The translations under genes and the position numbers were made by a program. The notes below the pieces were generated by a model that did not search any database, had not been told where the DNA came from, and was given only the letters and a program-made list of their open reading frames with translations. From NCBI RefSeq assembly GCF_003334785.1, contig NZ_QOWV01000010.1: DNA of 64,000 nt; one strand, given 5' to 3'. Shown here piece after piece: positions 3,113 to 3,607 of the stretch. Each line of letters begins with the position of its first letter. Within the stretch, counting starts at the first letter, position 1. This stretch comes from Escherichia coli (GTDB lineage: Bacteria > Pseudomonadota > Gammaproteobacteria > Enterobacterales > Enterobacteriaceae).

Positions 3113-3607
3113 TTATGAACAACTGTCCATGATTTCGTTTAAGAATGAAGAGAAATCACTAAACGAACTGAATATATTTTCTGTGCCAATATTATCTCTA
3201 ATTTCAAAAAAGTTACTTTTAATGTCATAAGTAAATATTGAAATGCTATAATCCCCGATCACTAACCGTTCTTGTAGATCAGGGTTTATGAAATCATCAT
3301 TATTTCTATAAAATTCATTTACGGCAAAAAGGTTTTTAACTGAAGGTTCTGGAATCGAGAGGCTAAATAATCGTAATCCATTAACTTCGAATCCATCCAT
3401 TGCTCTTAAAAAAGTAAGATAATCAGGTTGATTCTTAAAAAGAATACTAACTTCATTACATAACTTCTCCAGGCAATTAGTTGAATTAGAATTAAATTCT
3501 ATTTGGATTATACTTTCAATAAATGATTCCTTGAGCGGTGCTTCAAATGGATAGTCTAAATCATTCATCATTTTTATTAATTTATTTATTTGGGTTTTAG
3601 TCATCAT
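3113..3607 (-). CDS. yrhA: candidate immunity protein for the upstream Hcp-nuclease toxin (164 aa)
   Basis: ORF start ATG overlaps toxin stop by 4 nt (ATGA), implying translational coupling; acidic, AT-rich codon usage like the toxin gene; gene symbol from remembered synteny (yhhZ-yrhA), function is inference. Confidence 0.6.
   Translation of the reverse strand: MMTKTQINKLIKMMNDLDYPFEAPLKESFIESIIQIEFNSNSTNCLEKLCNEVSILFKNQPDYLTFLRAMDGFEVNGLRLFSLSIPEPSVKNLFAVNEFYRNNDDFINPDLQERLVIGDYSISIFTYDIKSNFFEIRDNIGTENIFSSFSDFSSFLNEIMDSCS

Follow-up and report, generated by a model that had tools for sequence, protein, structure and literature searches.

The uninterrupted yrhA gene of Escherichia coli: probable wild-type immunity partner of the Hcp-HNH protein YhhZ and unoccupied target site of the K-12 IS1E element

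In E. coli MG1655 (NC_000913.3), yrhA (b3443) is a two-piece pseudogene split by an IS1E element between yhhZ and yrhD/yrhB. In the window, by which we mean the whole stretch of 64,000 nucleotides analysed here, the corresponding place is occupied by a single open reading frame directly downstream of yhhZ. The locus raises two questions: which of the two states is the ordinary one in E. coli, and what the intact gene does beside its neighbor. Our joint reading, in which we have high confidence, is that the frame is the ordinary, uninterrupted wild-type allele in its pre-insertion state, and that its product is the immunity partner of YhhZ, an Hcp-HNH protein. The features on which this reading is based are collected in Table 1.

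Table 1. Positions of the features discussed in the window, in MG1655 and in the homologous loci
Feature	Position	Strand	Basis or remark
Window
yhhA	39-479	-	annotation
ggt	572-2341	+	annotation
yrhB, 94 aa, Imm35-family protein	2379-2663	-	Pfam Imm35 PF15567 at 4.6e-23
Low-G+C island with yrhD, yrhA and yhhZ, between ggt and yhhY	about 2650-5000		composition profile
yrhD, 51-aa ORF, function unassigned	2863-3018	-	RefSeq annotation mapped from identical locus
yrhA, intact, 164 aa	3113-3607	-	ATG start; ORF list, NCBIfam NF038335, identity to 55989 yrhA
Unoccupied IS1E target site GACATTAAA	3218-3226	-	codons 128-130, gene nucleotides 382-390
ATGA start/stop overlap yhhZ/yrhA	3604-3607	-	sequence reading
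yhhZ (annotated tssD; Hcp-ET1 type), 392 aa	3604-4782	-	directly upstream of yrhA
Linker, YhhZ residues about 172-229	about 4096-4269	-	KTLNSKAIGRLLAAGGVYNGN...DAIKGYDQILNE...
yhhY	5019-5507	-	annotation
RyhB sRNA, between yhhY and yhhX, just outside the low-G+C island	5658-5722	+	Rfam RF00057, 83 bits
yhhX	5840-6877	+	annotation
glpR, intact 252-aa ORF	26040-26798	+	extra C at window 26190
Eight substitutions relative to MG1655	7053, 17535, 21656, 27692, 32482, 38247, 48823, 59899		window alignment
MG1655
yrhA fragment 1	3583038-3583427		NC_000913.3 annotation
IS1E, 768 bp, insA6/insB6	3583428-3584195		NC_000913.3 annotation
yrhA fragment 2	3584205-3584309		NC_000913.3 annotation
Homologous loci
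Linker-bearing protein, L008	2845-3984
Linker-bearing protein, L011	316-1485
Linker-bearing protein, L012	2930-3991

The yrhA frame of 495 nt is annotated as 'protein YrhA' by RefSeq at identical loci in other strains. Its product matches the YrhA family model of NCBIfam (NF038335) over residues 4-163 with 122.1 bits (cutoff 55, E=1.7e-35), and an open frame of this length is unlikely to have arisen by chance in DNA of about 30% G+C. On the minus strand, the junction with yhhZ reads CAC ACA AAA TGA TGA CTA. The start codon of yrhA (ATG, 3607-3605) and the stop codon of yhhZ (TGA, 3606-3604) have the four nucleotides ATGA in common. From this overlap, we infer that translation of yrhA is coupled to that of yhhZ. 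Inspection of the sequence upstream of the yrhA ATG revealed no strong Shine-Dalgarno sequence, and this lack, if anything, favors reinitiation. The overlap is absent in distant homologues, which have gaps of 9-16 nt instead.

Comparison of the window with the MG1655 region by blastn gave two segments. The first (1-3226) is 100% identical, and the second (3218-8645) contains one mismatch; they overlap by nine bases (3218-3226), and both MG1655 yrhA fragments match the window at 100% identity. The IS1E of MG1655, whose position inside yrhA is also given in the literature (PMC12428005), ends with the IS1 terminal repeats GGTGATGCTGCCAACTTACTGAT and GGTAATGACTCCAACTTATTGAT and is flanked on either side by a 9-bp duplication, GACATTAAA. 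This 9-mer is present as a single copy in yrhA of the window; therefore, the window carries the empty-site allele. A search for the IS1 terminal repeat with up to three mismatches gave 0 matches across the 64 kb, and the only break in colinearity between the window and the K-12 chromosome is a block of 777 bp (IS1E) that the window lacks. The insertion allele, composed of the 768-bp element and the 9-bp target duplication in yrhA, is present in MG1655 and absent from the window.

These results bear out most of an initial annotation of the locus. It had described the uninterrupted 164-aa frame, which appears identically in the ORF list and as the RefSeq yrhA, and its 4-nt ATGA overlap with the toxin gene, which we read again from the minus strand. 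It had also noted no insertion sequence nearby, in agreement with the lack of any IS1 end in the 64 kb and with the colinearity to MG1655 minus IS1E. Its statement that yrhA of MG1655 is disrupted by IS1 between yhhZ and yrhB corresponds to the b3443 pseudogene and the IS1E of Table 1. The alignment to MG1655 that it proposed for finding the IS1 target duplication placed the 9-bp site inside the frame.

The distribution of the two alleles indicates which of them is ordinary. The yrhA gene was found in 3784 of 5426 complete E. coli genomes and was in one piece, defined as a single match over at least 80% of the gene, in 3405 of the 5426. With a probe of 80 bp that spans the boundary between yrhA and IS1 in K-12, the junction was detected at a coverage of at least 80% in 353 of the same 5426 genomes. 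Those sampled among the 353 were nearly all named K-12 laboratory strains (MG1655, W3110, BW25113, DH10B, DH5alpha, DH1, MC4100, TG1, XL1-Blue, and J53). These counts indicate that intact yrhA is the common wild-type state and that the interrupted form characterizes the K-12 lineage. The proposal of the initial annotation that the window represents the ancestral, uninterrupted arrangement is thus upheld by the empty site, by the intact allele being the commonest, and by the confinement of the junction to 353 genomes. Both its observation and its interpretation were essentially right, but they concern facts that were already known and documented.

A separate kind of variation was seen among the YrhA entries. 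Some E. coli sequences of 155-164 aa (P0044 and P0052-P0058) diverge abruptly past about residue 118, as in the stretch ...LVIGVIAFQYLLMTLKVTFLKLE...; of these entries, P0044 and P0052 were compared by alignment. The divergent C-terminus resembles the product of a frameshift, and yrhA may have been damaged independently outside K-12.

Over its 64 kb, the window and MG1655 have an identity of 99.985%; eight substitutions and a 1-bp indel separate them, and IS1E is absent from the window. At such a high identity, the window could be thought to derive from a K-12 derivative that lost IS1E by precise excision or, like IS-free or delta-IS1 strains, by engineering, so that the intact yrhA would be secondary and not ancestral. 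However, eight substitutions and an indel in 64 kb are probably far above the divergence among K-12 sublines. Natural isolates from humans, cattle, and wastewater match the identical uninterrupted sequence in one piece at about 100% identity, and the K-12 junction is limited to the 353 genomes described above, of which those sampled are nearly all laboratory strains. Strains with a deliberate IS1E deletion do exist (PMC12428005). However, lambda-Red deletions pass via kanamycin-cassette/FRT intermediates, with an 85-bp FRT scar in one construct (PMC12428005), whereas the site in the window is a clean single target copy. We consider such a secondary loss extremely improbable, and MG1655 or a K-12 subline minus IS1E was rejected as the origin of the window on the grounds of the substitutions and of this single, scar-free target site.

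The indel concerns glpR. MG1655 lacks one C at 3560455, and glpR is annotated as a pseudogene there; its frameshift is a second MG1655-specific lesion that is absent from the window. From these alignments, the source of the window appears to be a natural strain very close to K-12, not a distant one. The initial annotation had assigned the window to a strain other than MG1655. This part stands in view of the eight substitutions, the indel, and the missing IS1E; yet the strain is a very close one.

The pre-insertion allele lies in a low-G+C island. The island has a G+C content of 0.28-0.35 against 0.50-0.58 in its flanks, and this composition is consistent with horizontal acquisition. It is missing from some E. 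coli lineages, such as O157:H7, where only the ggt end aligns. The G+C content of yrhB is apparently above that of the adjacent island. A consensus scan located a terminator hairpin between ggt and yrhB at 2349-2372. Other matches to promoter or terminator consensus sequences in 2300-5100 were no better than those in shuffled sequence and defined no operon boundaries. An NCBIfam search with the yrhD product gave zero matches.

The product of yrhB is annotated as a 'putative heat shock chaperone' in K-12. The Imm35 family, to which it is assigned, is tied to Tox-PL1 papain-like toxins (Zhang et al. 2012, PMC3482391). No such toxin is present at the locus; yrhB therefore looks like an orphan and probably confers immunity to another toxin, of the Tox-PL1 type.

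The N-terminal part of YhhZ is an Hcp tube domain, as indicated by matches to Pfam T6SS_HCP (2.5e-11), TIGR03344 (3.8e-34), and Hcp3 in the PDB (3he1, 2e-11). The match of the C-terminal part to the HNH domain of Pfam is weak (E=0.013, residues 322-343). An HH...N...H motif was read from the alignment at residues 323-349 (VHHKLSLDDGGTNDFENLVLIENEPYH), and the C-terminus is predicted to be an HNH/His-Me nuclease toxin. In the literature, the His-Me finger classification gives YhhZ a group of its own, number 32, and treats it as a nuclease effector of the T6SS (PMC5714182), and an older paper named it an 'evolved Hcp' with a degenerate HNH domain (PMC2907695).

This arrangement has been described under another name. 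According to three reports that summarize Ma et al. (2017, Virulence 8:1189), namely PMC6099711, PMC6730261, and a preprint (bioRxiv 10.1101/2024.03.05.583533), Hcp-ET1 consists of an Hcp protein extended by an HNH DNase and occurs in STEC004, O104:H4 C227-11, and E. coli 55989; in STEC, it is delivered by T6SS2 and kills by degradation of target DNA. YhhZ has the same architecture, N-terminal Hcp and C-terminal HNH, with the HNH match being weak as given above. Two of the reports (PMC6099711 and PMC6730261) describe how ETI1, encoded downstream, neutralizes Hcp-ET1. In E. coli 55989, the genes stand in the order yhhY-tssD(392 aa)-yrhA(164 aa)-yrhD-yrhB-ggt. YhhZ of the window is identical to its tssD product at 391 of 392 residues, and YrhA is identical to its counterpart at 162 of 164 (99%). 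An identity of 99.4% is given for an ETI1 orthologue in the bioRxiv report, and this value fits one mismatch in 164 residues. The secondary sources and the 55989 locus together argue strongly that yhhZ/yrhA is the published Hcp-ET1/ETI1 pair and that ETI1 would be YrhA.

What kind of protein YrhA is was less evident from direct searches. A Pfam scan of YrhA itself gave no match even at E<=10, including SMI1_KNR4, SUKH_5, and SUKH_6, and a sequence search of the PDB gave only matches of the kind expected by chance (antibody chains and MLH1, E>0.1). Fifteen orthologues from Escherichia, Citrobacter, Klebsiella, Leclercia, and Dryocola were combined in a profile. Among 1.84 billion representative proteins, this profile matched 115 at E<=1e-3, many of them about 150 aa long. 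Among 74 aligned relatives, SMI1_KNR4 (SUKH-1) was matched by 26 at E<=1e-3 and by 42 at E<=0.1, while SUKH_6 and SUKH_5 were matched by 19 and 17, respectively, at E<=1e-3.

An AlphaFold2 model of YrhA based on the 74-sequence alignment had a pLDDT of 91 and a pTM of 0.87. The top four PDB matches of this model in Foldseek were all SUKH proteins, namely 2icg, chains A and B of 2prv (YobK), and 3d5p (SMI1/KNR4), with a probability of 1.00, TM scores of 0.51-0.61, and modest E values of 5e-3 to 1e-2. By its intermediate homologues and its predicted fold, YrhA is a divergent member of the SUKH (SMI1/KNR4) superfamily. This membership, invisible to Pfam, is a mildly new point. In polymorphic toxin systems, SUKH proteins have been described as immunity proteins of a versatile kind (PMC3482391).

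Three homologous loci were compared with the yhhZ/yrhA pair. In Leclercia (L008), the gene for a YrhA homologue of 57% identity is separated by 16 nt from the gene upstream, which encodes a protein of 379 aa with DUF8093, not Hcp, at its N-terminus; over its residues 169-377, this protein has 69% identity to YhhZ 172-382. In a metagenomic contig (L012), a homologue of 26% identity follows, after 9 nt, a protein of 353 aa whose N-terminus is different again and whose C-terminal region is 47% identical to YhhZ. The YrhA homologues stand behind the HNH domain while the N-termini differ; therefore, the immunity gene goes with the toxin domain rather than with the delivery domain. The YrhA family appears to travel with the HNH cassette, which is the behavior expected of a cognate polymorphic-toxin immunity gene. 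In the third locus (L011), a DUF8093 protein has only the linker in common with YhhZ (78% identity over YhhZ 172-229). Its toxin end is Ntox30; the small ORF after it is likewise a different one, and a YrhA-like gene lies further downstream, like an orphan immunity gene.

The position of this last gene, behind a different toxin-immunity pair, bears on whether YrhA is cognate to YhhZ at all. It could be a chance neighbor with another SUKH-like role or with immunity to a different toxin, in keeping with the versatility of SUKH proteins and their frequent occurrence as orphan copies in poly-immunity loci, of which the neighboring yrhB would be an example. However, yrhA is immediately downstream of yhhZ with a 4-nt overlap, and its linkage to the HNH domain is kept over three N-terminal architectures and down to 26% identity. 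The neutralization of Hcp-ET1 by ETI1, as described in the two reports cited above, also speaks against a chance neighbor. A non-cognate YrhA is thus very unlikely, and we retain YrhA as the partner of YhhZ.

The linker itself is common to proteins with different N-termini (Hcp, DUF8093, and another), and in L011 it is joined to a different toxin, Ntox30. We tentatively propose, at somewhat less than even odds, that this segment at about residues 172-229 of YhhZ (KTLNSKAIGRLLAAGGVYNGN...) is a conserved demarcation or recombination module that joins interchangeable delivery and toxin domains, and that YrhA represents a Pfam-invisible SUKH subfamily for the HNH cassette. The linker as a recombination module may also be a mildly new point.

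On the basis of these results, the following mechanism can be proposed. YrhA would be a small cytoplasmic immunity protein of the SUKH fold, made from the same transcript as yhhZ just upstream. It most likely binds to the HNH domain and blocks it, so that the producing cell and its kin are protected from YhhZ, and the ATGA overlap probably secures the immunity protein whenever the toxin is translated. YhhZ would become part of the Hcp tube and reach its targets through a T6SS encoded elsewhere in the genome. By analogy with the published pair, we infer both the neutralization of YhhZ by YrhA and the T6SS delivery in the source strain. The K-12 lineage gained IS1E at codons 128-130 of yrhA, and the window shows the state before this event, which is that of most E. 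coli.

The consequence of the insertion for the protein can be described. The 5' fragment of K-12 yrhA encodes 130 native and 8 IS-encoded residues, and the 138-aa product is annotated as a 'YrhA family protein' by RefSeq in K-12 derivatives. Judged from the AlphaFold2 model, two strands, 133-138 and 145-149, and the last helix, 152-163, are missing from this product. K-12 (yrhA::IS1E) keeps an intact yhhZ despite the truncation of YrhA after residue 130. Silencing of the locus, residual immunity, or an inactive toxin may account for this tolerance.

The same tolerance fits the view that yhhZ and yrhA are a silent relic, with no T6SS, H-NS-type silencing of the AT-rich island, and an overlap of no functional consequence. 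The island has only about 30% G+C, and T6SS apparatus genes were not found within the 64-kb window. However, thousands of genomes retain both frames uninterrupted, with identities of 95-100%, yhhZ is reported to be induced in biofilms (PMC2907695), and the operon is reported to be driven by the promoters yhhZp5/p7 (PMC12428005). We regard a silent relic as unlikely, though deserving of some weight; it bears on the level of expression and not on the identity of the genes.

The K-12 reference carries a lineage-specific, IS1-damaged toxin-immunity locus, while wild E. coli and the window keep the intact pair. The intact gene is the common wild-type state and is nothing new in itself, and the interruption in K-12 is already annotated and present in the literature. 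In practical terms, yrhA should not be called a pseudogene by annotation pipelines trained on K-12. Moreover, K-12 laboratory strains may be poorly protected against E. coli armed with Hcp-ET1, which is relevant to the use of K-12 as prey in T6SS competition assays.

Compared with MG1655, the window has the same gene in the same locus order (ggt-yrhB-yrhD-yrhA-yhhZ-yhhY). MG1655 differs by IS1E and the duplicated GACATTAAA after codon 130, whereas the gene of the window is an uninterrupted frame of 164 aa. The Hcp-ET1/ETI1 pair of STEC and O104:H4 shows no detectable sequence difference from the pair in the window.

Among proteins of known structure, YrhA is predicted to have the same alpha+beta fold as SUKH proteins such as B. 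subtilis YobK (PDB 2prv). Its identity to the solved SUKH structures is about 15%, and no Pfam SUKH model detects it directly. Like the SUKH immunity proteins (PMC3482391), it is small and apparently cytoplasmic, and its gene directly follows that of a nuclease toxin in a locus of the polymorphic toxin type. The linker of YhhZ may be a boundary module comparable to the VENN motif in CdiA.

A further parallel is provided by the colicins E7 and E9 with Im7 and Im9. As in yhhZ/yrhA, an HNH (His-Me finger) DNase is accompanied by a co-transcribed immunity gene; the match of YhhZ to Col-Pyo_DNase in Pfam is weak and non-significant (E=1.9). Im7 and Im9 are four-helix proteins unrelated to SUKH, and colicins are delivered by receptor-mediated import and not by a T6SS.
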